Shown here piece by piece: positions 6,410 through 42,917 of a DNA stretch of 64,000 nucleotides. The stretch lies in the IMG/VR virus record IMGVR_UViG_3300045988_149609, one strand, 5' to 3'. Both the position numbers and the translations under genes were made by a program. The notes beneath the pieces were generated by a model. That model did no database searches, had not been told where the DNA came from, and was given only the letters and a program-made list of their open reading frames with translations. The stretch is from a virus. Positions within the stretch are counted from its first letter, which is position 1. Each line of letters begins with the position of its first letter.

Positions 6410-7291
6410 TTACTTAGTAATATAATTTCTTTTAATAAATTCTTCTCGCAAACTACAAGTTAATTCTTTTGCCATAGGATGAGCAGCATTATCGCATCTT
6501 CTGTAGAAGAAATTAGACCAAGCATCTTCAAAACCACAGGAAATTAATTCAGATTTAACTGACAAAGGAAGTACATCTCTAGCTTGTTGAGGAGTATATC
6601 CACCCTTAAGTAATGATAGATAAGCATAATTTGCCTGTACTAAAGAGGCTAAATATCTTAAATTAGGATTTTCTATATCATATTGATTTGTAAGAAAACA
6701 CAACTCATTGATTGATGTTATTTCCTTATCAAGGATAATCCAAGATGGCTGAATGAAAGTAATTTGATTGTCAAATTTATCCTTTGAATAATTACAATAT
6801 CTAGTACTCTCAGCTAAATGACTTAATGTAACATGAGTTCTAAACTCATCCATTATAGCTCGATTAGAGATAAAATGTACAGTATGTCTTTTTGGATAAT
6901 ACTCATTATCTGATTCATCAAAGTAATTAGATACCCAAGGAAAATGTTTAATAATATCTAGATAATATCTGTAATTAGTTGTTATATAAATAACTTTTTC
7001 ATTAGAATTAGATTCAATCCATATATCATTATATATTCTTTTTACATATAATGCTAGCATAAATCCTTGAAATTCTGAATATTTTATTTTAAGATGCACA
7101 GTACCAAATTCAAGTGGACGTGAATGATCTCTTTTTACAAGCATATCTACAAATTTTTCATAAGATGTATCAGTAATTTTATCTTCAGATTTGTAACATA
7201 CTCTTCCACATCTTTCAATAAACTTTTTAATACCTACTAAAGAAAAATCAGTTTGATCAATTATTTCAAATGATTGATTTATTAACTTCAT
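6410..7291 (-). CDS. thyX: flavin-dependent thymidylate synthase ThyX-like
   Basis: Motifs HTVHFISNRAIMDEFRTHVTLSHLAESTRY (compare ThyX RHR...S....S.RY) and ARDVLPLSVKSELI...RRCDNAAHPMAKE (ThyX ARxVLPL...R.D..AQ.E). Confidence 0.65.
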   Translation of the reverse strand: MKLINQSFEIIDQTDFSLVGIKKFIERCGRVCYKSEDKITDTSYEKFVDMLVKRDHSRPLEFGTVHLKIKYSEFQGFMLALYVKRIYNDIWIESNSNEKVIYITTNYRYYLDIIKHFPWVSNYFDESDNEYYPKRHTVHFISNRAIMDEFRTHVTLSHLAESTRYCNYSKDKFDNQITFIQPSWIILDKEITSINELCFLTNQYDIENPNLRYLASLVQANYAYLSLLKGGYTPQQARDVLPLSVKSELISCGFEDAWSNFFYRRCDNAAHPMAKELTCSLREEFIKRNYITK

Positions 7292-10211: not shown

Positions 10212-10490
10212 TTAAATTATTTTAAAAATATATTTTTCCAAATCATCTTCATCTTTAGGAATATCATTTAACTCAATAAGTTCAATATATCTTGGTATTT
10301 CTGTCAATAGCATTGTTTTATGTTTAGATGAAGTAAAACTATATTTTGTACAATTTATAATTATTTTATCATCATACCATTGAGCAATACAAGTAGTATA
10401 AGAAAATAATTTATTGTTTTCAAAAATGATATGCAAACTATGTCCTTCTTCTTTATTAACAAAAGCTCTAATTGTTTTTAAATTTGTCAT
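10212..10490 (-). CDS. hypothetical protein
   Basis: ORF track, 92 aa. Confidence 0.4.
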   Translation of the reverse strand: MTNLKTIRAFVNKEEGHSLHIIFENNKLFSYTTCIAQWYDDKIIINCTKYSFTSSKHKTMLLTEIPRYIELIELNDIPKDEDDLEKYIFKII

Positions 10491-10499
10491 TATATTAAA

Positions 10500-12389
10500 T
10501 TAAAACACATCAAACAAATTACCTTGTTGAATACAAAGTTGATTAATAATTTTATTAGCTTCCACAATATAATATCTATAATTTATATTAATAGGAAAAT
10601 CTTTAAATTCATCAAGATTATTACAAATAGTAACACCTGATGCTTTTAACATGTTTATATAACCATATCTTCCTCCATCTTTATTTGTTCTACATTTATA
10701 TAAATAAGGGCCATTAGTAGAACAATAATAACGATTGATTCTTTGAATTATTCTATTATTGTATTCTACTTTAAAATCTTTACTTACTTTTTGATAAGTA
10801 ATAAAATCATTTAAATTTGTACTATTTCTAATAGTTTCTTCTACAGGTGTACCATTAGCAAAATAAGCATTAACAGCTTTAGGTATAATCATAGCATTCA
10901 TACCTTTACCCAAAGTTACAGAATCAATAAATAATCCTTTTTTCTTTAATAATTTAGGATCTTTACTTTTTGAATAACCTTCAACAACACCTAAATAATC
11001 ATTAATTGCAAATTGATAAAATCGTTCAAATCTATCTTCTTCAAGTTCAAGTTTAGTAAGATTCTCCCACCATTTACAAACAGCCTTAAATTGTTCTTCA
11101 TCTTTTTTCTTTCTAAGAACAAATAAGCCATCTGTATTAGCTTGAATTATTTTACAACCTATTGCTATAAGTTTTTCAGCTAACATTAATAACAATAATT
11201 GTCCATTAATTCTAATTTGCATCACAGTTTTTGGAGAATAACAAAAACTAAATTCAGATTGTAAATTGCCACTTAAACCATTAATTGATAATTTTAATGT
11301 TAGATTTTTTAATTTATTACCATTATGTTTAGCTTCAATTCTTTCATCTTTTATTCTTTTATAAACTTCAAGAAAAACTTCACCTAAATGAGGAGGATAA
11401 AATTTATATTGAATTATAAGTGAAGGATATAGTGATGCAACATCCACGTCACTTATAATTTCATCTTCATTTGCTTTAAAAATTGATGGTTTATTAACTG
11501 AATGAATACCACCTACTCCTACTGAATATTCAAGATTATCCATTAAGAAATGTTTTTCATATCCTTTTCTACCTGGAGATACTACTTGTTGTTTCATTTC
11601 TTTTAATAAATCTTGTAATATAGGTGTATCATATTTAATAAAAGGAAGTATTACATCATTAAGTGCTATTTTATCACAAGGGCTTCTTAAATCTTTAATC
11701 TCCCACCAAGTTTTATGTGTTTTTTCTAAGTATTTATATTTAATAATTTCCATACCTAGATTAACACCATCTTTGTTTAAAGCTTTTATTCCATATTCTT
11801 TTTCAATGTTTAATCTTAATTTAATATCATTTTCACATTTATCTAATAATGTAGCAGTAGATTCTACATCATTAATATTATATTTAATCATTTCAGGAAT
11901 ATCTTCATCTTTAATTGGTTTATTAAAATCACCTTCATATTCCTGCACATTATGAAATTGCATTGTAACTTGCATTTCTTTAAGTCCAACTCTCAATTTC
12001 TGTGAAAATAACATTGTTAAAAGATCTAATGTTTTATATGTTGTTCCATATTTAAATTGTTTCCATTGTTCAATATTATCTGAATTAATAATAATATCAC
12101 TTAATTTATGAATACCTTCACATATAGAATACCATTTTAAATCTTTAATAAGATTTTCATAGGACATTAAAAGATTAATGATAGGATTATCATAATGTAT
12201 ATTATTATATCCACAAAATATAATATTTTTTGATTTAAATAATTGAATTAAATCTATTATATTATTTTTTCTATGTGAACACTCAAATAACATTATATTA
12301 TTTGTTTCTGTGTTTTTAAGACAACAATGAAAACAATTAGGAAATACTTCTATATCATAAACATATACTATTAAATTATTAATTATCAT
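10500..12389 (-). CDS. family B DNA polymerase, compact phi29-like layout
   Basis: Exo I YDIEVFPN, Exo II YNNIHYDNPI, Exo III YNINDVEST, motif A DVDVASLYPSLII, motif B KLSINGLSGNLQ, motif C IIQANTDGLFV, all in canonical order in a 629-aa ORF. Confidence 0.85.
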   Translation of the reverse strand: MIINNLIVYVYDIEVFPNCFHCCLKNTETNNIMLFECSHRKNNIIDLIQLFKSKNIIFCGYNNIHYDNPIINLLMSYENLIKDLKWYSICEGIHKLSDIIINSDNIEQWKQFKYGTTYKTLDLLTMLFSQKLRVGLKEMQVTMQFHNVQEYEGDFNKPIKDEDIPEMIKYNINDVESTATLLDKCENDIKLRLNIEKEYGIKALNKDGVNLGMEIIKYKYLEKTHKTWWEIKDLRSPCDKIALNDVILPFIKYDTPILQDLLKEMKQQVVSPGRKGYEKHFLMDNLEYSVGVGGIHSVNKPSIFKANEDEIISDVDVASLYPSLIIQYKFYPPHLGEVFLEVYKRIKDERIEAKHNGNKLKNLTLKLSINGLSGNLQSEFSFCYSPKTVMQIRINGQLLLLMLAEKLIAIGCKIIQANTDGLFVLRKKKDEEQFKAVCKWWENLTKLELEEDRFERFYQFAINDYLGVVEGYSKSKDPKLLKKKGLFIDSVTLGKGMNAMIIPKAVNAYFANGTPVEETIRNSTNLNDFITYQKVSKDFKVEYNNRIIQRINRYYCSTNGPYLYKCRTNKDGGRYGYINMLKASGVTICNNLDEFKDFPININYRYYIVEANKIINQLCIQQGNLFDVF

Positions 12390-18749: not shown

Positions 18750-19254
18750 TCAATGTTTTTATAATTCTATCAACAATACAAATAGCTAATTCAGCTTCTT
18801 CTTTAGTCTTAAAGAAAGCTTCGTTTTGCCATCTTACAATTGAACTTGTTGATATTTTTACAGCTTGATCTTTATTTGCACTAAGACAACCAATACCAAA
18901 TACTGATTTCAATTTACGTAAATCGCAATCTCTCCATTCAATACTAATTACGCGATAAAGACAATCTTTAAATGCTTTAGGATAAATAGACAACAATTCT
19001 GTAAAGTATTCCTTTGTTTGATGTAATGACCAATTCTTTCTTATTGCTATTTTTTCCAAATAAAAATCTACAAGTTCTTGATTATCATTAATAATTACTT
19101 CTTTTATGAAACCCAATTCATTTAAATACATAATGTTTTCTAAAGTAACATTACATTCAAAACACAATCTTGCATTTGCATTCATTTCTTCATATTTAAA
19201 CTTATCTCCTACTTTAACTTCTTTACCTGTTTTTGTATTAATGTATTTCTTCAT
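18721..19254 (-). CDS. hypothetical protein
   Basis: ORF track, 177 aa. Confidence 0.45.
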   Translation of the reverse strand: MKKYINTKTGKEVKVGDKFKYEEMNANARLCFECNVTLENIMYLNELGFIKEVIINDNQELVDFYLEKIAIRKNWSLHQTKEYFTELLSIYPKAFKDCLYRVISIEWRDCDLRKLKSVFGIGCLSANKDQAVKISTSSIVRWQNEAFFKTKEEAELAICIVDRIIKTLNEEQGKQKD

Positions 19255-19909
19255 ACCAATTAATTGTTTGATTATATTTAAGTTTTAATAATTTATTTAT
19301 TTCATAAAAAATCTTACTATGCATAGGTTTATTAATTCTAGCATAGTAAGAAGGATGTCGTTCAGTAAGAATTATATTAGTTCGTTTATCAATAAATTTA
19401 CTAAAATTCTTAGCTACATTACCAAATAAGACATAAATCAATCCAGGCTCATATTTTGATAAGGAATTAAAAAAGGCAATCATAAATTGATACCAAATCA
19501 TTATATGAGACATAGGTTTATTTATTTCTACAGTTAAAGCAGAATTAAGCATTAAACAACCTTGTTTAGCCCAACTCTCTAAACTGGGGTCAAAGATACA
19601 ACTATATTTTGGTCTTTCCAAATCAATAGCTGCATTTTTTATAATTTGTAATGAAGATGATAATTTATTATCTTCAGTACTTGTTTTATTGCCAAATAAT
19701 ACACCTGTAGCAACATTAGGTTGAAAATAAGGTTCTTGACCTACAAGAATTACTTTACAATCATGTAAACTACATAATCGAAAAGCTTTAAAAACTAATG
19801 ATTTATCAGGTGTATAATTTGATTTTTTATCTAAAACATTTAATACATTTTTAAGTAGCTTTATATCAATTACTTTTAACCAATCACCAAAATATTCTTC
19901 TATTGTCAT
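19238..19909 (-). CDS. ung: uracil-DNA glycosylase, family 1
   Basis: VILVGQEPYFQPNVATGVLFG (UNG water-activating loop GQDPYH...GLxFS) and C-terminal LTERHPSYY (HPSPLS motif). Confidence 0.8.
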   Translation of the reverse strand: MTIEEYFGDWLKVIDIKLLKNVLNVLDKKSNYTPDKSLVFKAFRLCSLHDCKVILVGQEPYFQPNVATGVLFGNKTSTEDNKLSSSLQIIKNAAIDLERPKYSCIFDPSLESWAKQGCLMLNSALTVEINKPMSHIMIWYQFMIAFFNSLSKYEPGLIYVLFGNVAKNFSKFIDKRTNIILTERHPSYYARINKPMHSKIFYEINKLLKLKYNQTINWYEEIH

Positions 19910-20868
19910 AATTGTTTATTAACAATACAATCTTTAGCTATTTCAAGTAATTTATCTTGAATACTTTCATTTACCAAACCTTTTATTTTTGGTATTTGTA
20001 TTTTATAAATTGAATCTTCTTCAGTACCCATTGTGCCTTCATAAATTACTTTAGTTACATAACTACAATCAAAACCATCTTCTACATTTATAGGAATTAC
20101 ATTGTTATTTTTATCATAATTAATAATTGCCATAGGAAGATATGCACAAGTTCTTAGTTTACCATATTCTGATCTTTTTGGTACAGCGACTACATCAGCA
20201 GGATTTACTAATACAGCAAGACCTGTATCACCAAAATAATTCTTTTTAAGCCAATTAACAGACGCACAATGTAATCCAGAAGAACATTCTACATTACTAT
20301 CACAGTCACATTTACTTCTATCCAAAGTTACCATTTCACCTATTTTAATTCTAGTTGAATGAGTGTGATGATCTGTATATACACCTTCTTCATTAGTACT
20401 ATCTACATTTCTATAAGCTACAAAGAATCCACATTTTGCTATTTTCAAACCATGTAGATGTAAAAACCAATATAGATTATTTCTACAATCTTCATCAGTA
20501 TTCAATGACATCAGAGTCCAAAAATTTTGATAAGCTGTAAGTTTTAATTCATCTTTATTTAACTCTGCATCAACAATAGATTCTGCTAAATCTTGAGGTA
20601 AAGAAAGATTTGAAACATTATCCCAATAAACAACATTATCTGCAATTCGTAAGATTTTTGACTTCCTTATTTTTTCAATAAAAGATAGTACTTCTTGCTT
20701 CTTATCTAATTCTTGTTTATATTGAGGATTTACAATAGCCAATGTTTCCTCATCAGAAGTAGATTTTAGTATTTTTTCAAAATCTTTATCAGAAATAATA
20801 CTTTCAATACAAGCTCCATTTTCTAGAAAAACTACTACTTTGTTGTCAACTTTAATTATTTTTTGCAT
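19906..20868 (-). CDS. hypothetical protein coupled to GHKL ATPase and UDG
   Basis: 320-aa ORF overlapping both neighbours (ATGA-type overlaps); Cys/His-rich segment HTHSTRI...CDCDSNVECSSGLHC. Confidence 0.5.
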   Translation of the reverse strand: MQKIIKVDNKVVVFLENGACIESIISDKDFEKILKSTSDEETLAIVNPQYKQELDKKQEVLSFIEKIRKSKILRIADNVVYWDNVSNLSLPQDLAESIVDAELNKDELKLTAYQNFWTLMSLNTDEDCRNNLYWFLHLHGLKIAKCGFFVAYRNVDSTNEEGVYTDHHTHSTRIKIGEMVTLDRSKCDCDSNVECSSGLHCASVNWLKKNYFGDTGLAVLVNPADVVAVPKRSEYGKLRTCAYLPMAIINYDKNNNVIPINVEDGFDCSYVTKVIYEGTMGTEEDSIYKIQIPKIKGLVNESIQDKLLEIAKDCIVNKQL

Positions 20869-23051
20869 AACATTTTTATTAAATTATTATTTTTTATTGC
20901 TTTATATCGTAGATAATCTACTCTATAAAGTTTACTTTTTATTATTGCCATTGTAATAAGATCTTCAAGAGATTCTGTAATTAAAGGATTATATTCAATA
21001 TGATTATTTTCACAAAAAGATCTATACAAAGTAACATAATGATTTAATTGATTACTCAAATTAATTGTATATTCATCAATACCTTTACAATTATCTAGTA
21101 TCAATTTTTTATAAAATATATTGCTATTATTTACTTTATTGTAAAATAAAATTAATTTATTAAATTTATCTCTTTGTGCATAAGGTATAGTTTTCAATAC
21201 AAATTTAAGCTCCCAATTTGAAGGAAAATTTTCAGATTTAGGAAATACTTGTAACATAGATTTATATTGAATGAATACTTTATCTTTAAATAAATCTTTT
21301 TTATTAATTATACACTTTAAATTAAGATTTCTAATAGCATCTACTATTTCTTTTCTTGCTCTAAGTAAAACATAGTTCTTTATACGAGCCATATAATAAA
21401 ACTCTGTACTATCCTTCATATTTAGAAGAACAACACCTTTTTTGAACTCTTTAATCCATTTAATACAGCTTTCAAGTGTAAGAAAACGAAATTCACTTTT
21501 ATAAGAACTACTACTTTGTTGATAAACAATGAAATCTACAATACGTTTTACAGGAGGTATTTTTTGAGCTTTACTTTCTGTTACATATTTTTGAAAAGAT
21601 GAATCTGTATTTAAATCTATTATTTTAGCGGTAGATTTTATATATTCATACATATCATCTACTAATGGATCTAATTCTGTTTGCGAAATATGCTTATATA
21701 TAGAACCATGTATATATTTAATAAACTCTTCTTTTGTAAAATCTGTAAGTATTATATACGAATTATAATTTTCTTGTAACCATTCTTTTACATACGTAGT
21801 AAATCTTACATCATTTTTTAAAATAAGAATTTTCTTAAAACTATTTAATAGACATTGTTCCGCTTTATATGGTATTTTTCCTTGATAAAATCTATTATTA
21901 AAGAAAACACCTTTAATATTAATAAGTCTTGAATGAAAAAACCATTTTATGTAATCATTTAAATTACTATTTATTTCTTTATTTTTAAATGTTATTTCAG
22001 AATAATCAAATTTAAATTCATATCCTGTATTTTCAATTCTAATATTGAACTTATGATAAGTGTTACTTAAAGGTTCATATTTATAAATAGAAGATATTAC
22101 TTCATAATAATCATATAAATTATTATAATTTTTTGGAAATTTCTTTTCAACTAAAGCATTTAATTCTTCATGAGCTGCTTTAATTTTATCATTTATTTTC
22201 TTTATTGTATCATTATCATAAATAATAGATTCTCTATTAGGTGTAACATTTAATTCACCAACATTGAATGAAATAACAATTCCAGATCTATAAATATTAT
22301 GTATAAAATCTTTATTTTCTACATTTACAAATTCATCATTACATGGATAAAGAACATTTCCAAGAAGAAACTTTGAATTTACTTCTATTGAAGCTGCTGC
22401 AAAATTATTAAATCTTTTTATTTTAACATCATTAATCTTAGTTTCTATTCCATCAATATAGACATTAGGAAAAAATATAAGACTTGAAAGAGCTTTCATA
22501 TAGGAATAAATTCCTTTTATGTTCTTTATTGTAACTTCGACACCATTTTTTTCAGTAGTTTCTTTTTGTAATATTAAATTATTAGTAATTGCGTTTCCAC
22601 TTTTTACCATAATATAATAATAAGCAATACCATTATAATATGAAGTTACATAGACAGTATTACTACAAGCTAATGCTGAAAATCTTCCTAAGCCAAATCC
22701 ACCTATATATTCATTACTATCTCTTTTAGTACTACTACCAATATTACAAAAAACATTTTTAAATCTTTCAGGACTTAGACCTGTACCAAAATCTCTAATA
22801 CTAATTTCCCAATCATTTTGTAAATGATTAAATTTGATAATAACAGGAATATTTGTAGTATTTGCTTCTACATGACTATCCCAAGCATTACTAACAATTT
22901 CTCTTATAAATGATTGTTCTGGATTTGAATATAAATTTGAAGATAATAAAGTTGTAATAATATTTAAGTTCTTTGGATCTATTGAAGTTTTAAATTCTTT
23001 AATATCACCTATTGTTTGAATATTGTTTTGTTGTATACTATCAATAATCAT
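20856..23051 (-). CDS. Hsp90/MORC-like GHKL ATPase domain protein
   Basis: N-terminal Bergerat-fold motifs EIVSNAWDSH (N-box), RDFGTGL (G1), IGGFGLGRFSALA (G2; compare Hsp90 GQFGVGFYSA); long C-terminal region of unknown fold. Confidence 0.6.
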   Translation of the reverse strand: MIIDSIQQNNIQTIGDIKEFKTSIDPKNLNIITTLLSSNLYSNPEQSFIREIVSNAWDSHVEANTTNIPVIIKFNHLQNDWEISIRDFGTGLSPERFKNVFCNIGSSTKRDSNEYIGGFGLGRFSALACSNTVYVTSYYNGIAYYYIMVKSGNAITNNLILQKETTEKNGVEVTIKNIKGIYSYMKALSSLIFFPNVYIDGIETKINDVKIKRFNNFAAASIEVNSKFLLGNVLYPCNDEFVNVENKDFIHNIYRSGIVISFNVGELNVTPNRESIIYDNDTIKKINDKIKAAHEELNALVEKKFPKNYNNLYDYYEVISSIYKYEPLSNTYHKFNIRIENTGYEFKFDYSEITFKNKEINSNLNDYIKWFFHSRLINIKGVFFNNRFYQGKIPYKAEQCLLNSFKKILILKNDVRFTTYVKEWLQENYNSYIILTDFTKEEFIKYIHGSIYKHISQTELDPLVDDMYEYIKSTAKIIDLNTDSSFQKYVTESKAQKIPPVKRIVDFIVYQQSSSSYKSEFRFLTLESCIKWIKEFKKGVVLLNMKDSTEFYYMARIKNYVLLRARKEIVDAIRNLNLKCIINKKDLFKDKVFIQYKSMLQVFPKSENFPSNWELKFVLKTIPYAQRDKFNKLILFYNKVNNSNIFYKKLILDNCKGIDEYTINLSNQLNHYVTLYRSFCENNHIEYNPLITESLEDLITMAIIKSKLYRVDYLRYKAIKNNNLIKMLCKK

Positions 23052-23081
23052 AGAGCAAATTATTTAGAACATAAAACGAAT

Positions 23082-23115
23082 AAAATAAGGAGATATAAAC
23101 ATACCTCCTTATTTT
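23082..23115 (-). terminator. hairpin terminator-like element
   Basis: AAAATAAGGAG...CTCCTTATTTT stem of 10-11 bp with a 12-nt loop, between the 104-aa ORF and the GHKL gene. Confidence 0.4.
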
Positions 23116-23125
23116 ATTTATTTAT

Positions 23126-33884: not shown

Positions 33885-34181
33885 TTATTCTATGTAATTA
33901 TCATAAATGATTATAGTAGAATCTGCAATAGATTCAATTTCTTCTGGTATATATAAATCTGAACTTGAACCTATAATAATAGATGATCCTACTAATTTTT
34001 GTAATTCTACTAATGAAAATATATTATTAATAGTAACTATAGTATACTCTACTTCTTTATTATATTCATTTATTTTGATAGTTTCTAACTTATACTTATC
34101 TTTTAATTTATCAATATACTTAGGAAAGATTTTATTTGCTCCATAAGTGTATTGACCAGTATCAACAATAACAAATTTCAT
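33885..34181 (-). CDS. hypothetical protein
   Basis: ORF track, 98 aa. Confidence 0.45.
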   Translation of the reverse strand: MKFVIVDTGQYTYGANKIFPKYIDKLKDKYKLETIKINEYNKEVEYTIVTINNIFSLVELQKLVGSSIIIGSSSDLYIPEEIESIADSTIIIYDNYIE

Positions 34182-34223
34182 AATATTCTAGTAATTATTA
34201 TAATATAAATGTATTAAAATGTA

Positions 34224-34253
34224 AAAGCAGAGAGCAATCTCGCTCCCTGCTTT
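34224..34253 (-). terminator. GC-rich hairpin closing the GC-elevated island (possibly bidirectional)
   Basis: AAAGCAGAGAGC-aatctc-GCTCCCTGCTTT, a 12-bp stem with one mismatch; T-rich on both flanks. Confidence 0.5.
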
Positions 34254-34579
34254 AATGTGTTTTTAATAGTAGATTTTAGCTATTGTTTCAATACCTTTGA
34301 GAACTAATGCATCTGTAGCTTCCTCAAATTCTGGATCTATTTGTTCATGTGTTATTTTAGCACAAAGTTTTTCAAAAGTATTGAAATGATAAATTTGTAA
34401 CACTTCATAATCTTTGAAAATAAAAATTGTATAATCTGACATAATTTAATTTGTTTTTTGAGTTTCTTTTAATAATGTTAATAGATTAGCTTTAAATTTA
34501 TCATCTTTTGTATCATAACAAGCTACAAAACGGTTAGTTGTGAATACCCACCAACCTGATCTAATATTTAATGGATTCA

Positions 34580-34810
34580 TTAGTAAGTGTAGATTTTGAA
34601 CCCTTCATACATGGAGAGTTCGGATTCTTGAATGTTAACTATCTTGCCAAAGACTTTAGTATAATATCTCTTTTTGACAATAATCGTCTTAGAGATTTCT
34701 ACTATTGTTTGGCTTTGATGGTTTCGTGCTAAATCATTATGATGAGCACGAATAGAGGATTCATAGCCCTCTGAGCTACAAATCCTCTGTGAGTTAAAAC
34801 GCTTTCTCAT
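34580..34810 (-). CDS. hypothetical protein (GC-elevated island)
   Basis: ORF track, 76 aa; lies in GC-elevated segment. Confidence 0.4.
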   Translation of the reverse strand: MRKRFNSQRICSSEGYESSIRAHHNDLARNHQSQTIVEISKTIIVKKRYYTKVFGKIVNIQESELSMYEGFKIYTY

Positions 34811-34813
34811 GGT

Positions 34814-35053
34814 TTACCAAGACTCAATTTTAATAATTACATCTAAATCATATTGAACCCATGCTTGATCTGAGTAAATAATGAGATCTTTATTTTCTAA
34901 TGAAAACTCAAAAGGGTATTCAAAAAAGTCATTATTTTCTAGCTCGGTAAAAATTTTAATATCGTGATGTAATTTTTGAGCCGATGTCATGGCTTGATAT
35001 ATATTATCTGCTGTCATTTTGTTTTGTTTTAGTCTATAAAGATTGTAGTACAA
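34814..35053 (-). CDS. hypothetical protein (GC-elevated island)
   Basis: ORF track, 79 aa. Confidence 0.4.
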   Translation of the reverse strand: MYYNLYRLKQNKMTADNIYQAMTSAQKLHHDIKIFTELENNDFFEYPFEFSLENKDLIIYSDQAWVQYDLDVIIKIESW

Positions 35054-35316
35054 GATTTGCCTTGATATTCTTCATATACATAATCACTCTCCTCTTCAAG
35101 GAGTTTCTCCATATGGAAAACATCTGACATATCATCTGTTTTACCATCTACATTACAGATAAACTCTGCAATTTCATGGAGAGTGAGCTTACCATAAAAA
35201 GTAAACTCTGTATAGAAAGTTTTATTGTGCATACATGCAAGTTTTGCTATTCTGCATACATCTAGTAGCCAAATGGCATAGTCAAAGTTTTTATTTTTCG
35301 TTACCATCTTCTTCAT
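35029..35316 (-). CDS. hypothetical protein (GC-elevated island)
   Basis: ORF track, 95 aa. Confidence 0.4.
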   Translation of the reverse strand: MKKMVTKNKNFDYAIWLLDVCRIAKLACMHNKTFYTEFTFYGKLTLHEIAEFICNVDGKTDDMSDVFHMEKLLEEESDYVYEEYQGKSCTTIFID

Positions 35317-35491
35317 CTAATTTAATGAATAAAACACCAGCAGCTAAGAATGCTGCAATAAAAATTATCATGTAGGTACCTGCAACATAGCAATCTCTTG
35401 CTATTATTGACGCGATACCTGAAACTGCTACTATGAGCAGTAAAAATATGATTAATATGTATGGTAGATAGAATTTCATTGTTGTTAGCAA
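35291..35491 (-). CDS. small two-helix membrane protein (GC-elevated island)
   Basis: 66-aa ORF with two hydrophobic helices and acidic C-terminus. Confidence 0.4.
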   Translation of the reverse strand: MLTTMKFYLPYILIIFLLLIVAVSGIASIIARDCYVAGTYMIIFIAAFLAAGVLFIKLDEEDGNEK

Positions 35492-35561
35492 TTTAAATAT
35501 TAAAAAAAATGCATCCTTTATTCTGTTGCCAAGAAAAGGATGTGAAAACTCCGAAACTTAT

Positions 35562-35933
35562 TCAATTTAAACCATATTTAGCACGTATGAGATCTTCTTT
35601 ATAGATCTCTGGATAGTATGTACGTAGAACATAGTCTATGTACAACTTTGTGTTATACGGTAATAATTGAAGTATTTCTTCTTTGTTATCCCAAACATAG
35701 CCACTATTGACCATGTTTGTTATAACGTTCTCCAAATGCTTCATGGTGTTTCCACCAAGCACTTGGAGAATGTCTAATGCTAAAGAAGCATTAGGTGTAA
35801 CAACATTGGACAATGCTTTATAAGCATCGTCAAAATTTGTATATGTTACATTCTCAATGAAATAATAAGTTGTCATGATAAACAAATGTTTTAGTTGTTT
35901 GGCAATATCACCATTATCCTCTGTATTTCTCAT
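35562..35933 (-). CDS. hypothetical protein (GC-elevated island)
   Basis: ORF track, 123 aa; chosen over antisense ORF 35875..36249. Confidence 0.45.
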   Translation of the reverse strand: MRNTEDNGDIAKQLKHLFIMTTYYFIENVTYTNFDDAYKALSNVVTPNASLALDILQVLGGNTMKHLENVITNMVNSGYVWDNKEEILQLLPYNTKLYIDYVLRTYYPEIYKEDLIRAKYGLN

Positions 35934-36032
35934 GCGGGCTTGGAACCGCCAAAGGCTACATTATAATGGAGTAGTAATATCTCTTGACATATCTCTTTCA
36001 AGATATGAAAGAAATAAGTCAAGAGATGGTAA

Positions 36033-36230
36033 TCATTTAATAATGAGTTTTGCATTCAATGAATCCATATCTATTCCATGGATTTCACCATATTTATCAG
36101 CTAAATCTCTAAGTGTCTCTACAGCTTCAAAATACTTACGTTTTTCTTCTGGTGTTGCAAGATTTGTGTTTAACAATTTATTTGCATATTTAGTATATAC
36201 TAATGCGCGCATACCTGTTATGTTTCTCAT
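36033..36230 (-). CDS. hypothetical protein (GC-elevated island)
   Basis: ORF track, 65 aa; begins MRNIT like the next gene (MRNTE). Confidence 0.4.
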   Translation of the reverse strand: MRNITGMRALVYTKYANKLLNTNLATPEEKRKYFEAVETLRDLADKYGEIHGIDMDSLNAKLIIK

Positions 36231-36342
36231 TTTTTTTTATTTTTTATAAGTTGTTATTAAAGTTCTCACTCTGAGTTCTAACCTCAGTACAATAGTTTTA
36301 TTTAAGTGAGAATGGGACTTTTTGCTAGTTGTTTAAAAGCCC

Positions 36343-36376
36343 CCAAAAAAAACCAACCAGCACTGTTGTGTGCTGG
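36343..36376 (-). terminator. intrinsic terminator of first minus-arm gene
   Basis: CCAGCAC-tgttgt-GTGCTGG perfect stem 13 nt after stop of 36389..36718, followed on minus strand by an 8-T run (A8 at 36345-36352 on plus). Confidence 0.7.
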
Positions 36377-36388
36377 CTGGTGTGGTGC

Positions 36389-36718
36389 TTACAGTTCGAT
36401 AGTAAGCACAGAAGTGCCTTTCGTACCTGTAACTTCGCCATTGCCTATGCAAAGAAGTGGCACCCAAGATGCGCCATTATCCTGCGAACATTCGCAGAAA
36501 TAGACTGCATCTTTTTTGCCATCTTGCAAGGCTGCTACTGCATCTTCTGTGCAATAGCAATGACTGACGATGTTTTCGTGATTGTCAAGGTCTTGCTTAT
36601 TAGCATAAAAGTAAGCACAGTGCTTGTTGTTGTCATTCTCACGAACATTGCACCATTTGATGCCCTGTTCACGAAGAGAAAGAAAACTCATGCTGTTGCG
36701 GAATTTAGCTGTTGCCAT
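36389..36718 (-). CDS. Cys-rich hypothetical protein, first gene of minus arm
   Basis: 109-aa ORF in roughly 50% GC DNA, 8 Cys (CAYFY, CYC, CEC, LLC); followed by a canonical intrinsic terminator; preferred over two overlapping plus-strand ORFs with junk-like hydrophobic translations. Confidence 0.5.
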   Translation of the reverse strand: MATAKFRNSMSFLSLREQGIKWCNVRENDNNKHCAYFYANKQDLDNHENIVSHCYCTEDAVAALQDGKKDAVYFCECSQDNGASWVPLLCIGNGEVTGTKGTSVLTIEL

Positions 36719-37008
36719 TTTTGTATTGTATTAAGAAGGAAGCCCCCTAATTGATTGTCAGCCAGTTGAGCGGGGGCATTAACCCAAACGGCCGAAGGCT
36801 GGGGGAGGTATTGGGTGGCTATCCCTCGCTCTCTTTAATATAACAATCTTCAAAAATTTTAGAAAAAAAATTATTTTTTACTTCTGTTTTAATAGAGTAA
36901 AATTATAATTTAAATACCATTCTAAAAGATAAGAAGAAAAGAAGTAGGGAAGTCATTGATTATCAGATAGTTATAACATTTTAATGTTGTGTATTACATA
37001 ACTAATTG

Positions 37009-37642: not shown

Positions 37643-38203
37643 ATGATAGGAACGCATGATAGTTTTACTTATTTAAAAGCAAAACATAAAATATATGAAT
37701 TGTTTTCATTTTTATGGAGAACACAAACTAAATCTCTAGAAGAACAAATAGAAAATGGAGTTACCTACTTTGATATAAGAGTACATAGAACTAAAGATAA
37801 TCAATGGGAATTGTGTCATGGATTAGTAAACTTTGATAAATCCTACCAATCTTTAGCTACTCTACTCAAAGAATTAGCTAGGTTTAATATTAGATTAATT
37901 TTAGAAAAAGGTACAAAACAAGATGAAATAGAGTTTGAAAAATTGATTTATGTACTTAAATACAGATATAATAATTTAGTTTTTTCAGCTATTAAAAAGA
38001 ATTGGAAAGTATTACATAATACACATTTAGCTATTATGGATTATACTTATATTCCTTTTTATTCAGATCTTTCATTTTGGCAAAATATTAAAAGGATGAA
38101 TTGGTTTAGTACTATTAAAAAATGGGCTAAAAAACATAATCCTGTTATTACACAAGATATGAAAAATGATATTAATGTTGTTTATTTTATAGATAGATTA
38201 TAA
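37643..38203 (+). CDS. PI-PLC X-domain-like phosphodiesterase
   Basis: MIGTHDSFTY (PI-PLC IPGTHDSGT), NGVTYFDIRV (ARIFDIRGR), QWELCHGLV (VLHHGP) in the correct order. Confidence 0.6.
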   Translation: MIGTHDSFTYLKAKHKIYELFSFLWRTQTKSLEEQIENGVTYFDIRVHRTKDNQWELCHGLVNFDKSYQSLATLLKELARFNIRLILEKGTKQDEIEFEKLIYVLKYRYNNLVFSAIKKNWKVLHNTHLAIMDYTYIPFYSDLSFWQNIKRMNWFSTIKKWAKKHNPVITQDMKNDINVVYFIDRL

Positions 38204-40503
38204 TGAGTAGAACAAAAGATAATAAAACAAATAAAAATCAAAATACTTCACAAGAACAAATAAAAGAACAGGAAATGACTTTTCCTTATTATGATTGGAT
38301 AAATGGATCTTATTATCATAATAAAGAAGAGTATGATGTTCATGCTCCTAATAATATTCTTTGGAAAGAAGTTTCTCAAAAAACTTTAAATGAAGTTAAT
38401 AAAAAATATAATTTAGGATATAAAGTAGATAAAAAAGGAAATGTTGTAAGAAATAAATATACGCATTCACCAATATATGCAGATGGTCGTGAGAATTACC
38501 CAGAAGGTGAAGAATATAATAAGTTGTATGAAAATAATGTTGAAACAAATAAAAGAAGATTAGAACTTGAAAAAACAGCAAAAATAAAAACAAAATCTTC
38601 TTCAACTGTAGATCCTGGAGGAGTAAAAATAGCTGGAATAATTCAACAAATAGGAGCTACAACTCCAAATAATAATCCACAAGCAGTAGCACAAAGAAAC
38701 GCACAAGCAAAACAAAGGCAAGTACAGCAACAAACAGAAAATAAAGATTATATAGAAAATCAAAAAAAATTAGGAGAATTATTTTTAAATTCTGCAGCAC
38801 TTGCTACTTCTATTGCAGCAATGGGGTCTCAAATAGGTAGTGCTGTATATAACAATAAAGCAAATAATTTATTATTTAGACAAGGATATGCTACAGGAAT
38901 AAATAATCCAAAATATATAAACTATACAAATATTGCTAATGATTTAGATCGTATATATAAAGTAGCAGATGCTATAAATTTACCCATAGATATTGCTCAA
39001 TTTGCAACAAGTTCTGGCCCAAAAGAACAAGTTTATAATGGAATACAATTAGGGCTATCAGGTATAAAATATGTACCTATAAATAATCCTGCTTTCGGTG
39101 TAGTTAAACCTGTTACTAGTTTTGTAGGTAATTTAATGGAACCTATTTCATTAGGTTTTAAAGAAGGAGGCCCACTTAAAAAATCATACAAAGATTTTTC
39201 TACTAGATTATCTAAAGCATGGGGTAATCAAGATTTAAGTCAAGATAATTATGATTATCAAAAGTATTATAATGATGATCCAGATAGAGCTTATAGGCAA
39301 CTAGAATCTATTGAAAAAGGAGGGCAAGGCCATTTTGATGATGAGGGAAAAAGTGGCACTTATAAAACACCTAATCATGCTACTTATCCTGATTTAGGTG
39401 CTAATTCTTGGCTTGATGATGGTAGAATATTTAATATATCTGCAAGACAAGCTAATCAAGGATTAGATAATATAAGAGATGAAATAAATACAGATAGAAT
39501 ATTAGACTATTTAGGACATGATTTGAATTATAATAATGGAGCTACTAAAGTAATATATGATGGGGCATATCAATTACCTTCAGTAACAGTTGTTTCTACT
39601 CCAAAAGGTAATTATGCAAGAACAGAACTTATCCCTAATGAATTAGGTACAGGTTGGATGTATAGAGATAGAGCTGGAAGGTTTGCTAATTTTAATTATG
39701 ATTATGTAAATCGTTATGACGGAAATCAAAAAGCATTAAGTGGTAATTTATTTAGAAATGGTTCTTGGATGCCTAATAAACAATGGCGAAATAGAATTTC
39801 TGCATGGGAAGGTTCTTCAATGTATAGACCTGCACCTGATACAGGTAGAGTTAATAGTTCTTTTCAAGCAGAAGCTAGTAGATTTTTATCTGTTTTACCA
39901 AAAAAAGCATTACAGAAATTACCTGAACAAGCAATAAATGCTTTATATAGTTATAGTTATAATGTAGGTGCAGGTAACTTTAAAAAGAGAGTTGTACCTG
40001 TATTAAATAAATATCTTGATGGAAAAGCTTCTTTACAACAAGTTACAAATAGTATGTATGCTACTAAAGATTCTCAATTAAGAGGTTTACAAAAAAGAAG
40101 AAGATATGAAAGAGGAGCTTTTGAAGCAGCTATTACAGGTAAAGATTTAACAGGTACTAATGCTTATCAGCAATATGATCCATTAACAAGTAATTATCAA
40201 TCAAGTAATTCACCTGCCACTAAAAGAAGAAATATTCAATGGACAGACACAATTAATTTAAATGATGGTAGTTTAATACAACCAAATCAACAAGCTCCTT
40301 CTTTAATGCAACAATTAGCACATTCTGAAGAAATTTTAGCTGAAGCAAACAAGAGAATAAATCAAGTTACAACAAGAATGATGCCTGATGCACAAAGTAA
40401 TGATCCTTATATTAATGCTGTTTATAATTCTTCTATTCAAGATAATAGAGAACTTTTAGCAAATGATTTAAAAACATATTTAGAAACAAGTTTAAATTAT
40501 TAA
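38203..40503 (+). CDS. large virion-associated protein with possible lysozyme-like C-terminal region
   Basis: 766-aa ORF; C-terminal AWEGSSMYRPAPDTGRVNSSF...ALYSYSYNVGAGNF loosely resembles the GH24 E-x8-D-x-T pattern; weak. Confidence 0.4.
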   Translation: MSRTKDNKTNKNQNTSQEQIKEQEMTFPYYDWINGSYYHNKEEYDVHAPNNILWKEVSQKTLNEVNKKYNLGYKVDKKGNVVRNKYTHSPIYADGRENYPEGEEYNKLYENNVETNKRRLELEKTAKIKTKSSSTVDPGGVKIAGIIQQIGATTPNNNPQAVAQRNAQAKQRQVQQQTENKDYIENQKKLGELFLNSAALATSIAAMGSQIGSAVYNNKANNLLFRQGYATGINNPKYINYTNIANDLDRIYKVADAINLPIDIAQFATSSGPKEQVYNGIQLGLSGIKYVPINNPAFGVVKPVTSFVGNLMEPISLGFKEGGPLKKSYKDFSTRLSKAWGNQDLSQDNYDYQKYYNDDPDRAYRQLESIEKGGQGHFDDEGKSGTYKTPNHATYPDLGANSWLDDGRIFNISARQANQGLDNIRDEINTDRILDYLGHDLNYNNGATKVIYDGAYQLPSVTVVSTPKGNYARTELIPNELGTGWMYRDRAGRFANFNYDYVNRYDGNQKALSGNLFRNGSWMPNKQWRNRISAWEGSSMYRPAPDTGRVNSSFQAEASRFLSVLPKKALQKLPEQAINALYSYSYNVGAGNFKKRVVPVLNKYLDGKASLQQVTNSMYATKDSQLRGLQKRRRYERGAFEAAITGKDLTGTNAYQQYDPLTSNYQSSNSPATKRRNIQWTDTINLNDGSLIQPNQQAPSLMQQLAHSEEILAEANKRINQVTTRMMPDAQSNDPYINAVYNSSIQDNRELLANDLKTYLETSLNY

Positions 40504-41371: not shown

Positions 41372-41443
41372 TGGCTAATAGTTCAATGGTTAGAACAGTA
41401 GACTGTTAATCTATTAATCTAAGTTCGATTCTTAGTGTCCCAA
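41372..41443 (+). tRNA. tRNA-like, anticodon GTT (Asn) with non-complementary acceptor stem
   Basis: Canonical D arm (GTTC/AATGGTTA/GAAC), anticodon arm GTAGA-CTGTTAA-TCTAT and T arm CTAAG-TTCGATT-CTTAG were folded by hand, but the 5' TGGCTAA and 3' TGTCCCA do not pair; may be a pseudogene or my boundary is wrong. Confidence 0.35.
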
Positions 41444-41447
41444 CAAT

Positions 41448-41525
41448 ATTTCGGTAGCTCAGATGGTTAGAGTACCAGAGAGAGAGGAACTCTGGAGGTC
41501 ATTGGTTCAAATCCAATCTGAAGTA
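41448..41525 (+). tRNA. tRNA-like element with 9-nt purine-only anticodon loop
   Basis: Acceptor ATTTCGG/CTGAAGT (2 GU wobbles), D arm GCTC-AGATGGTTA-GAGT and T arm ATTGG-TTCAAAT-CCAAT are canonical; the anticodon stem CCAGAG/CTCTGG encloses AGAGAGGAA with no U33. Confidence 0.35.
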
Positions 41526-41544
41526 TTATTTTATGAAAGGCCCA

Positions 41545-41604
41545 TAGTCCCTGAATATAAATAACTTAGCTGCAGCAATATTGTTATTATTAATTCAAAC
41601 TATG
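41545..41604 (+). repeat. tRNA-leader repeat copy 1
   Basis: Shares tagtccctga, ataact(t)agc, atattgttat and ttcaaactat blocks with copy 2 at 41784-41839; ends 7 nt before tRNA-Thr. Confidence 0.55.
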
Positions 41605-41610
41605 GGATAT

Positions 41611-41683
41611 GCTTCTATAGCTCAGTTGATAGAGCAATGGTTTTGTACTCCATGTGTCATAGGTTTGAATCCTATTAGAAGCT
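41611..41683 (+). tRNA. tRNA-Thr (anticodon TGT)
   Basis: Hand fold: perfect acceptor GCTTCTA/TAGAAGC, D arm GCTC/GAGC, anticodon loop TTTGTAC, T arm ATAGG-TTTGAAT-CCTAT. Confidence 0.75.
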
Positions 41684-41688
41684 CAAAT

Positions 41689-41761
41689 GACGCTATCTTC
41701 TAAATGGTTAGAAAACAAGATTTTCAATCTTGTAATTTGGGTTCGATTCCCAATGGCGTTA
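41689..41761 (+). tRNA. tRNA-Glu (anticodon TTC)
   Basis: Acceptor GACGCTA/TGGCGTT (2 GU), D arm TTCT/AGAA, anticodon stem CAAGA/TCTTG with loop TTTTCAA, T arm TTGGG-TTCGATT-CCCAA. Confidence 0.6.
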
Positions 41762-41783
41762 CAATTTAATATTTAATTCCTTG

Positions 41784-41839
41784 TAGTCCCTGATGTAGGA
41801 TAACTAGCCATGGTGATATTGTTATCATTTCAAACTATA
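41784..41839 (+). repeat. tRNA-leader repeat copy 2
   Basis: See copy 1; ends 8 nt before tRNA-Arg. Confidence 0.55.
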
Positions 41840-41846
41840 AGGTTAA

Positions 41847-41920
41847 GCATCAGTAGCTCAACTGAATAGAGCAACGCCCTTCTAAGGCGTGGGTTGTGAG
41901 TTTGAGTCTCACCTGATGTA
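41847..41920 (+). tRNA. tRNA-Arg (anticodon TCT)
   Basis: Acceptor GCATCAG/CTGATGT, D arm GCTC/GAGC, anticodon stem ACGCC/GGCGT with loop CTTCTAA, T arm GTGAG-TTTGAGT-CTCAC. Confidence 0.8.
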
Positions 41921-41938
41921 CTATGAAAAATTTAAACT

Positions 41939-42064
41939 ATGAAAGATTTAGACACAAATAAAAAAGAAGATTTAAAATTTCATGAATATAAAATTGTTAT
42001 AGAAGATGGAATAAATTTAGATGAATTAATACGTTTTACAAAAGAATTATTTATTAAAAAATAA
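41939..42064 (+). CDS. possible 41-aa small protein inside tRNA array
   Basis: ATG..TAA frame MKDLDTNKKEDLKFHEYKIVIEDGINLDELIRFTKELFIKK between tRNA-Arg and tRNA-Lys; below ORF-track size cutoff. Confidence 0.2.
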   Translation: MKDLDTNKKEDLKFHEYKIVIEDGINLDELIRFTKELFIKK

Positions 42065-42109
42065 ATTAATAATTATTTTTAAAGTCAGTATTTTGAATAA
42101 TACTTATTA

Positions 42110-42182
42110 GAACTGTTAGCTCAATTGGTAGAGCATCACACTTTTAATGTGAGGGTTATGGAATCGTACTCCATACAGTTCA
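42110..42182 (+). tRNA. tRNA-Lys (anticodon TTT)
   Basis: Perfect acceptor GAACTGT/ACAGTTC, D arm GCTC/GAGC, anticodon stem TCACA/TGTGA with loop CTTTTAA, T arm ATGGA-ATCGTAC-TCCAT (atypical T loop). Confidence 0.75.
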
Positions 42183-42190
42183 CAAGAATA

Positions 42191-42265
42191 GGACTCTTAG
42201 CTCAGATGGTTAGTAGCAACAAACTCATAATTTGAAGGTCATAGGTTCAAATCCTATAGAGTCCA
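42191..42265 (+). tRNA. tRNA with CAT anticodon (elongator Met or Ile2)
   Basis: Perfect acceptor GGACTCT/AGAGTCC, anticodon loop CTCATAA, T arm ATAGG-TTCAAAT-CCTAT; anticodon stem lacks the three G-C pairs of initiator tRNA. Confidence 0.7.
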
Positions 42266-42267
42266 CT

Positions 42268-42534
42268 ATGTGTTATATAGGAAAATTAATTAAAAATAAT
42301 ACAGGAGTAAGTTCAAAGAATTTCTTCTTAGTAGTAGTAACTATAATTGGTTGTATATTACTTATCATACCTGCTATTATATTAGCTATTGAAGTATTTT
42401 ATAATCATACAATTGCTACAAATTTAGATGGAATGGCAGCATATATTGCATCAGTAGCAGCAATATTTACATCTGCAGGAATTACTAAAGCTTGGTCAGA
42501 AAGATATGAAAACAATAAAACAAAAGAGAATTAA
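42268..42534 (+). CDS. small two-helix membrane protein (holin-like topology)
   Basis: Track ORF 42232..42534 begins inside the tRNA; first ATG after the tRNA is 42268 (MCYIGKL...), with two hydrophobic helices. Confidence 0.45.
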   Translation: MCYIGKLIKNNTGVSSKNFFLVVVTIIGCILLIIPAIILAIEVFYNHTIATNLDGMAAYIASVAAIFTSAGITKAWSERYENNKTKEN

Positions 42535-42820
42535 AATATTTAATACTACATATACTATTAAATATATAGATAAAATTGAAAATAACGAAAATAAATTTGT
42601 GTTTGGTAGAACAAATGCTATAGATAAACATATTTATATTGCTACTAAAAATGATAATAACAAAAAGTTATCAAATGTTGAGATAAAAACAACTCTTTAT
42701 CATGAATTAATTCATGCTATTCTTTCTGAAGGAGCTTATGGAAAAGAATCAGATAATGAACCTTTAGTAGAATGGATAGCTAAATGTTTAGTACAACTAA
42801 ATACTAATAATATAATATAA
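42506..42820 (+). CDS. small HExxH zinc-metallopeptidase-like protein
   Basis: TLYHELIHAILSEGAYG contains an HExxH motif in a 104-aa ORF. Confidence 0.45.
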   Translation: MKTIKQKRIKIFNTTYTIKYIDKIENNENKFVFGRTNAIDKHIYIATKNDNNKKLSNVEIKTTLYHELIHAILSEGAYGKESDNEPLVEWIAKCLVQLNTNNII

Positions 42821-42831
42821 TAAAATAAAAT

Positions 42832-42917
42832 GGCTTCATGGTGAAAATGGTAGACACGAAGGACTTAAAATCCTTTGGGCAGAAATGTCCGTGCGAGTTC
42901 GAGTCTCGCTGAAGCTA
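42832..42917 (+). tRNA. tRNA-Leu (anticodon TAA), class II with long variable arm
   Basis: Acceptor GGCTTCA/TGAAGCT, 3-bp D stem, anticodon stem AAGGA/TCCTT with loop CTTAAAA, 17-nt variable arm, T arm GCGAG-TTCGAGT-CTCGC. Confidence 0.8.

Follow-up and report, generated by a model that had tools for sequence, protein, structure and literature searches.

Is an Hsp90-like ATPase carried by a bacteriophage a chaperone, a DNA-processing enzyme or a counter-defence protein, and does the DNA-repair gene found close to it belong to the same system? This question is raised by a locus in IMG/VR virus record IMGVR_UViG_3300045988_149609, of which one stretch of 64,000 nucleotides was analysed (the whole of this stretch is referred to as the window). 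At positions 19238-23051 an initial annotation had described three overlapping open reading frames (ORFs), and these were confirmed, all on the minus strand and of 731, 320 and 223 amino acids. It had read them as a translationally coupled unit made up of a GHKL ATPase, a protein of unknown function and a family-1 uracil-DNA glycosylase (UDG). Here we report that the first two are, close to certainly as judged from profile and pairwise matches, rIIA and rIIB. In phage T4, rIIA/rIIB make up Benzer's rII locus, the 'protector from prophage-induced early lysis' that acts against RexAB. Homology with the phages in which rII has been studied makes it likely that the two genes serve as an accessory module by which the phage counters Rex-type abortive infection, with the UDG as a separate gene.

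A gene pair of the rII family

The 731-residue protein (rIIA; 20856..23051, minus strand) matched the PHROG profile phrog_612 'RIIA lysis inhibitor' with an E-value of 1.9e-58, residues 1-678 lying on profile positions 1-672 of 725, and five further RIIA PHROGs matched it as well. BLASTP against T4 rIIA gave 3e-21 at 26% identity over the N-terminal 349 amino acids, which include all GHKL motifs. The 320-residue protein (rIIB; 19906..20868, minus strand) matched the 'RIIB lysis inhibitor' profiles phrog_609 (1.4e-32) and phrog_2886 (1.7e-23) plus three more RIIB PHROGs, and T4 rIIB by BLASTP (7e-16, residues 73-243). In precomputed Pfam tables PF26926 Phage_T4_rIIB is recorded for an identical protein; our own Pfam scan of the 320-residue protein gave no match because PF26926 is absent from the version scanned. 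The protein that had been left as unknown is thus a member of a named family. Its description as Cys/His-rich holds only in a mild form, with 3.1% Cys and 1.9% His as compared to 1.5% and 1.3% in the other ORFs of the window.

Members of these families are widespread, contrary to the view that Hsp90- or MORC-like ATPases are uncommon in phages. Of 50,697 GenBank phage records searched by tblastn, 2,581 contained an rIIA and 2,553 an rIIB homologue, almost without exception annotated as rIIA/rIIB, and an exhaustive HMMER scan for rIIB returned 6,802 clusters at 50% identity (E<=1e-3). The locus is a textbook rII pair, already annotated in the nearest RefSeq relatives, and its architecture matches that of the family save for a diverged C-terminal half of rIIA. 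In cr116_1 the three genes are labelled, in the same order, 'rIIA-like protein', 'protector from prophage-induced early lysis' and UDG; the RefSeq record of IAS virus uses the second of these names for both rII genes, again with UDG next.

The rIIA stop and the rIIB start overlap by 13 nt (ATGCAAAAAATAA; 20856..20868, minus strand), and the rIIB stop and the UDG start share ATGA (19906..19909, minus strand). Both overlaps were read directly from the sequence, while translational coupling, which the initial annotation had taken as given, is what we infer from them. The 13-nt overlap makes it probable that rIIA and rIIB are translated jointly from a single message. In the window, as in T4 and the N4-like KP8, rIIA lies directly upstream of rIIB on the same strand; the two KP8 genes overlap by 4 nt.

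An Hsp90-like ATPase domain in rIIA

The translation of rIIA contains the three Bergerat-fold motifs in the order first noted. Motif I, the N box (E51-IVS-N55-AWD58, residues 51-58; 22878..22901, minus strand), was aligned to Hsp90 'ELISNASDA', motif II, the G1 box (D87-F-G-T-G-L92, residues 87-92; 22776..22793, minus strand), to 'D.G.GM', and motif III, the G2 box or ATP lid (G117-GFGLGRFSA126, residues 117-126; 22674..22703, minus strand), to 'GQFGVGFYSA'. In an alignment of 33 homologues from the clade (43-62% identity), E51, N55, D58, D87, G89, G91, G117, F119, G120 and G122 were invariant. Pfam scores for HATPase_c_3 (7.8e-12) and HATPase_c (2.5e-6) were both above cut-off, and together with the invariance in the clade this shows that the GHKL motifs are real and not fortuitous.

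Which branch of the GHKL superfamily does the protein resemble? An AlphaFold2 (AF2) model built from the 33-sequence alignment had a mean pLDDT of 81.8, and its best Foldseek matches in the PDB were full-length TRAP1, Hsc82, GRP94, Hsp90-beta and HtpG, with E-values of about 5e-13. All of the top 50 matches were Hsp90 paralogues. These alignments span the Hsp90 N and M domains, with a global TM-score of about 0.3 and of 0.49 on an N+M fragment of TRAP1. At the sequence level the only relatives in the PDB were the N-domains of Hsp90, TRAP1 and GRP94 (E 5e-4 to 0.02), and no solved rIIA structure was found. The G2 box had been placed closest to Hsp90/HtpG and MORC/HATPase_c_3; of this, the likeness to Hsp90 (PDB, Foldseek) and to HATPase_c_3 (Pfam) stood, while MORC did not appear in the top 50 Foldseek matches.

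Three specific identities were considered and rejected. As stated in the initial annotation, the protein is not a GyrB or topoisomerase subunit, since neither topoisomerase, GyrB nor Toprim was matched in Pfam, PHROGs or NCBIfam and the top PDB matches are of Hsp90 type. MutL and MORC were set aside as Pfam gave only the generic HATPase_c_3 and HATPase_c and neither was among the top 50 Foldseek matches. Nor is it a member of the Hsp90 family proper: the NCBIfam HSP90 model scored 50 bits against a cut-off of 455, in the N-domain only, and when the rIIA alignment was compared with E. coli HtpG by hhalign, the N-domain alone aligned (residues 31-133, 93.5%).

Downstream of the GHKL domain lies a candidate catalytic loop, T270-P-N-R273-E274 (22230..22244, minus strand), of which 'TPNRE', with R273, was invariant in the clade alignment. 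The R273 loop, ELNVTPNRESII, aligned in T4 rIIA with SLDIAPSREALS ('APSRE'), and it resembles the catalytic loop 'PLNVSREILQ' (R336) of E. coli HtpG. The motif resemblance and the span of the Foldseek matches over both the N and M domains suggest that R273 is an Hsp90-type middle-domain arginine that would complete the ATPase site. As hhalign reached the N-domain only, equivalence of the rIIA middle domain to that of Hsp90 stays at the level of motifs. The C-terminal region that follows the GHKL domain is alpha/beta and helical. By its sequence, rIIA is thus a protein with a predicted N-terminal GHKL ATPase, followed by a domain with the invariant R273 and by a C-terminal region that varies between lineages.

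The fold matches also bring up the possibility of an Hsp90-type chaperone dedicated to the phage: rIIA would fold phage proteins, and rIIB would be its co-chaperone or client adaptor. Full-length Hsp90, TRAP1, GRP94 and HtpG as best matches to the model (5e-13), Hsp90 N-domains as the only sequence relatives in the PDB, and the similarity between the 'NRE' loop and the Hsp90 'SRE' loop all fit such a role. The overall superposition is nevertheless poor (global TM about 0.3, 0.49 on the best N+M fragment), the HSP90 family score is far below cut-off and confined to the N-domain, and so is the HtpG alignment. Moreover, in hosts that lack Rex, five diverse phages could do without rII (PMC11879866), and this speaks against a general function in folding. 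We regard the chaperone reading, also raised in the initial annotation, as very improbable.

The rIIB partner

The AF2 model of rIIB, an alpha/beta protein, was built from a 40-sequence alignment (down to 27% identity) and was confident, with a pLDDT of 87.6 and a pTM of 0.82. The conserved core of rIIB covers residues 147-245 (20134..20430, minus strand), where T165, D166, C195, G198, H200, P223, P230, K237, R239, C241 and an 'R153-like' residue were invariant. A PDB sequence search with rIIB returned nothing and thus no solved relative, and Foldseek of the model against the PDB gave no significant match. Pfam scans of 40 diverse rIIB proteins (E<=5) gave scattered single matches, with no ADP-ribosyltransferase family and no recurrent family among them, and a literature search for a tie between rII and ADP-ribosyltransferases or crAss-like phages found nothing relevant.

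A more speculative reading has, in our view, only a slim chance. The rIIB core could be a very divergent ADP-ribosyltransferase-like domain that binds NAD+ or a nucleotide, and rIIA a true two-domain Hsp90-type ATPase clamp with the 'NRE' arginine finger. The pair would then inactivate Rex-type defences as an enzyme or modifier gated by ATP, instead of being a passive 'membrane protector'. If true, this would cover all rII systems and not only the phage studied here. The AF2 models provide mutational targets for the 70-year-old question of rII biochemistry, and the leads they give (the putative catalytic-loop Arg of rIIA and the core Cys, His, Lys and Arg of rIIB) are generic to the rII family, not specific to the window.

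The pair as a probable counter-defence module

Indications of function come from published work. Knock-down of divergent rIIA/rIIB (<40% identity) in T4, MM02, EdH4, SUSP1 and N4 sensitised each of these phages to lambda RexAB, and had no effect in any of the five without Rex (PMC11879866). With RexAB present, and only then, transposon insertions in T4 rIIA/rIIB were depleted (bioRxiv 10.1101/2025.11.20.689424), and T6 rIIB-null mutants turn RexAB-sensitive (PMC10312443). RIIB expressed alone is toxic, and T6 RIIB triggers a gasdermin/CARD-NLR system of the bacterium Lysobacter (PMC10312443). A comparative study assigns rIIA to a 'poorly understood counter-defence system' and describes an N-terminal GHKL domain joined to a C-terminus that varies (PMC7824862). 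Our literature search returned no biochemical mechanism for rII.

In the mechanism that we propose, the Hsp90-like GHKL ATPase rIIA would bind ATP in its N-domain, where N box, G1 box and G2 lid are all intact. Together with co-produced rIIB it would work as an ATP-driven clamp, an action that we infer from the fold, and the two proteins would neutralise an abortive-infection system of the Rex type, which depolarises the membrane and would be carried by the Bacteroidales host or by its prophages. The phage could then complete infection in cells that bear such a system, and the pair would be dispensable otherwise. Several points weigh against this proposal. Identity to the rII proteins studied so far is only 26-28%, and the rIIA match covers the N-terminal half alone. 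An anti-Rex-like function in a crAss-like phage is carried over by homology from the tested T-even, N4-like and other coliphages, and how rII works is, even for T4, predicted from fold. In addition, the pair lies inside a replication module, which would also fit a role in DNA metabolism. Unlike the T4 case, no Rex-type target is known in a Bacteroidales-type host, although no search aimed at one was made. PADLOC gave no match, which is expected for a phage gene and therefore uninformative.

The genomic position makes it necessary to consider that the main work of rII is in the replication or recombination of phage DNA, where it might, for instance, organise or anchor the replisome, and that Rex protection is a by-product, with Rex sensing the intermediates. 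Throughout the clade the pair is found between primase and the genes for UDG, exonuclease and NrdD, and in KP8 its neighbours are ThyX, dCTP deaminase, an NTP pyrophosphohydrolase and a helicase. In the older T4 genetics, rII mutations suppress defects in gene 30 (ligase). On the other hand, domain searches found no DNA-binding or nuclease domain in either rIIA or rIIB, and within the crAss-like genomes of GenBank only IAS virus and cr116_1 had a close rIIB homologue, a spread typical of an accessory gene and not of a core gene of replication. Knock-down of rII, or insertion into it, costs no fitness in Rex-free hosts in at least five diverse phages (PMC11879866; bioRxiv 10.1101/2025.11.20.689424). 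A primary role in replication therefore appears unlikely to us.

The counter-defence reading is in line with the distribution of the genes, as the restriction of close rIIB homologues to those two genomes fits an accessory module of one sub-clade. It also places rII-type modules in a sub-clade of the abundant human-gut crAss-like phages, which implies that Bacteroidales hosts or their resident prophages carry Rex-like systems worth seeking.

The uracil-DNA glycosylase and the conserved gene order

The 223-residue protein (19238..19909, minus strand) is clearly a homologue of family-1 uracil-DNA glycosylases (UNG). It matched the Pfam UDG family above cut-off (5.6e-10) and UNGs in the PDB with an E-value of 3e-23 over residues 31-218. 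'LMLNSALTVE' and 'HPS' aligned with UNG 'LLLNAALTVE' and 'HPS', hence the uracil-pocket Asn and the motif-B His are kept. The NCBIfam ung models matched with 3.6e-42, although the best score of 144.7 bits is below the equivalog cut-off of 162, and TIGR00628 gave 125.9 bits against a cut-off of 185.75. The enzyme had been called unambiguous. Its UNG type was borne out, but the scores and two motifs mark it as divergent. Motif A reads GQEPY (residues 57-61; 19727-19741, minus strand), with E59 in place of the catalytic Asp of UNG, and motif B reads HPSYYA (residues 185-190; 19340-19357, minus strand) where UNG has HPSPLS. The Glu is shared by two close relatives from independent metagenomes (loci L023 and L024, 4960-5631 in both), whereas GQDPY is retained in cr116_1 and ten other, more distant relatives that were aligned. 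With Glu59 replacing the water-activating Asp, the window UDG may have a reduced or altered activity. Across the clade the Leu-intercalation loop is HP(S/A)Y(Y/F)A instead of HPSPLS, with an aromatic residue at the position of the intercalating Leu.

Could rIIA, rIIB and UDG form a single three-component system for DNA processing or anti-defence, as was first suggested? All 15 IMG/VR loci retrieved with rIIB keep the order rIIA-rIIB-UDG and the stop/start overlaps, and three metagenomic contigs have the same order and overlaps as the window. In cr116_1 and IAS virus the order is likewise primase - small ORF - rIIA - rIIB - UDG - ... - PD-(D/E)XK exonuclease - NrdD. This conservation is, however, unspecific. 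In the same 15 of 15 relatives the whole region from primase to a Holliday-junction-resolvase-like gene is syntenic, and the genes that flank the trio (primase, orf104, the resolvase-like gene, exonuclease and NrdD) are as syntenic as the trio itself. The overlaps go on past UDG, with the next three genes overlapping by 17, 29 and 20 nt, which makes the three-gene unit an arbitrary cut from a longer, tightly packed run. Outside the clade, the rII pairs sampled in T4 and KP8 have no UDG beside them. UDG is, besides, a common stand-alone gene in crAss-like replication modules, and the cr116_1 UDG was annotated via its similarity to the phiCrAss001 UDG while its rII genes were named from VOG families only.

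Thus the trio was conserved only within a wholly syntenic module of one crAss-like clade, and a functional triad is hard to uphold; we give it very little weight. Since the flanks are equally syntenic and the T4 and KP8 pairs lack the gene, we conclude from the gene order that the UDG is a neighbour and no component of the rII module. It adjoins rIIB because of a clade-specific gene order, and in all likelihood it is a separate DNA-hygiene enzyme of a replication and nucleotide-metabolism module (primase, PD-(D/E)XK exonuclease, NrdD).

Interrupted genes in the relatives

The window has uninterrupted copies of rIIA, rIIB, UDG and primase, while many relatives carry insertions in these genes, at their most conserved motifs. 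The insertion points are after residue 120 in rIIA (G2 box), near residue 200 in rIIB (between the L and the H of 'CS.GLH'), near residue 59 in UDG (GQDPY) and near residue 193 in primase. The insertions are out of frame and of about 260 nt or about 1.1 kb, and were located in L005 (2064-3177), L010 (2041-3156 and 6143-7034), L011 (2892-3153), L015 (5613-6679 and 7228-8122) and L001 (7971-8996), and also in L016, L017 and L018. Free-standing ORFs for LAGLIDADG-type endonucleases were found in the examined insertions of rIIA (L005) and rIIB (L015). Rfam detected group I introns that reach threshold only in L010, at 6771-7031 and 10364-10610 (the UDG insertion and one other). At E<=0.1 the insertions in L011 rIIA and L015 rIIB gave no group I intron match in Rfam.

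The phage and the layout of the window

The window is assigned by its sequence to an uncultured crAss-like phage, Steigviridae/Asinivirinae-like. Its sole megablast match was cr116_1 (Steigviridae, Asinivirinae), with 80% identity over 300 nt. The phage is related to IAS virus and cr116_1 and close to neither, as judged from protein identities of 62-65% for rIIB and about 50% for rIIA. A protein identical to the window rIIB was found on a metagenomic contig of 101,633 bp (genome of about 101.6 kb). The G+C content of the window is 23-30%. Among its genes are those for a family-A-like DNA polymerase, a DnaB-like helicase, thymidylate synthase and NrdD, and the structural and packaging genes include the large terminase subunit, the portal protein and the major head protein.

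Upstream of rIIA, a terminator-like hairpin with an 18-bp stem followed by a T-run (23079..23118, minus strand) was picked up by a consensus scan only. The hairpin sits in the 74-nt gap between rIIA and the small ORF that follows primase, and a new transcription unit, with rIIA as its first gene, may begin there.

At about 34000-37000 both the GC skew and the AT skew flip sign and the gene orientation turns from minus to plus. The replication module lies on the minus side of this switch, and terminase, portal and major head protein on the plus side (45.7-63.4 kb). The switch looks like a divergent-transcription or replication-origin-like boundary. Eight tRNA genes are clustered at 41372-42917 (plus strand), between the two divergently oriented halves of the window. 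A 766-residue ORF at 38203-40503 (plus strand) has a weak endolysin-like PHROG match (E about 1e-6), to residues 563-680 or so alone.

Comparison with known systems

The T4 rII locus is the best-known counterpart. The proteins are of similar size (731 residues in the window and 725 in T4 for rIIA, 320 and 312 for rIIB), rIIA has the N-terminal GHKL domain with the same motifs, the PHROG and Pfam families are shared, and the two rIIB proteins have a common C-terminal core with 'CS.GLH', 'P.DVV..P' and 'K.RTC.Y'. The differences are an identity of 26-28%, a C-terminal half of rIIA that cannot be aligned to T4, and a 13-nt overlap of the genes in the window where T4 has a short intergenic gap. 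Further, the window pair belongs to a replication module, that of a podovirus-like crAss phage whose host is anaerobic and of Bacteroidales type.

With Hsp90 (HtpG, TRAP1, GRP94), rIIA shares the Bergerat-fold N-domain with its N, G1 and G2 motifs and a fold match that extends into the middle domain, where a candidate loop resembles the 'LNV(S/T)..RE' catalytic loop. Unlike Hsp90, it scores far below the family cut-offs, has a different C-terminal half with no detectable C-terminal dimerisation domain, and goes together with an obligate partner gene, rIIB, and an accessory counter-defence phenotype instead of proteostasis. The window UDG is homologous to UNG over its full length and has the uracil-pocket Tyr and Phe, the Asn of 'LNS/A.LTVE' and the catalytic His of motif B; it differs in the change of the catalytic Asp to Glu (GQEPY), seen in the window lineage only.

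The nearest named relatives are IAS virus (NC_049978, Paundivirus) and cr116_1 (MT774389, Pamirivirus), which carry orthologues of both proteins (62-65% identical for rIIB, about 50% for rIIA). In these two phages rIIA is split after the G2 box by an insertion that bears an endonuclease gene, whereas the rIIA of the window is intact.

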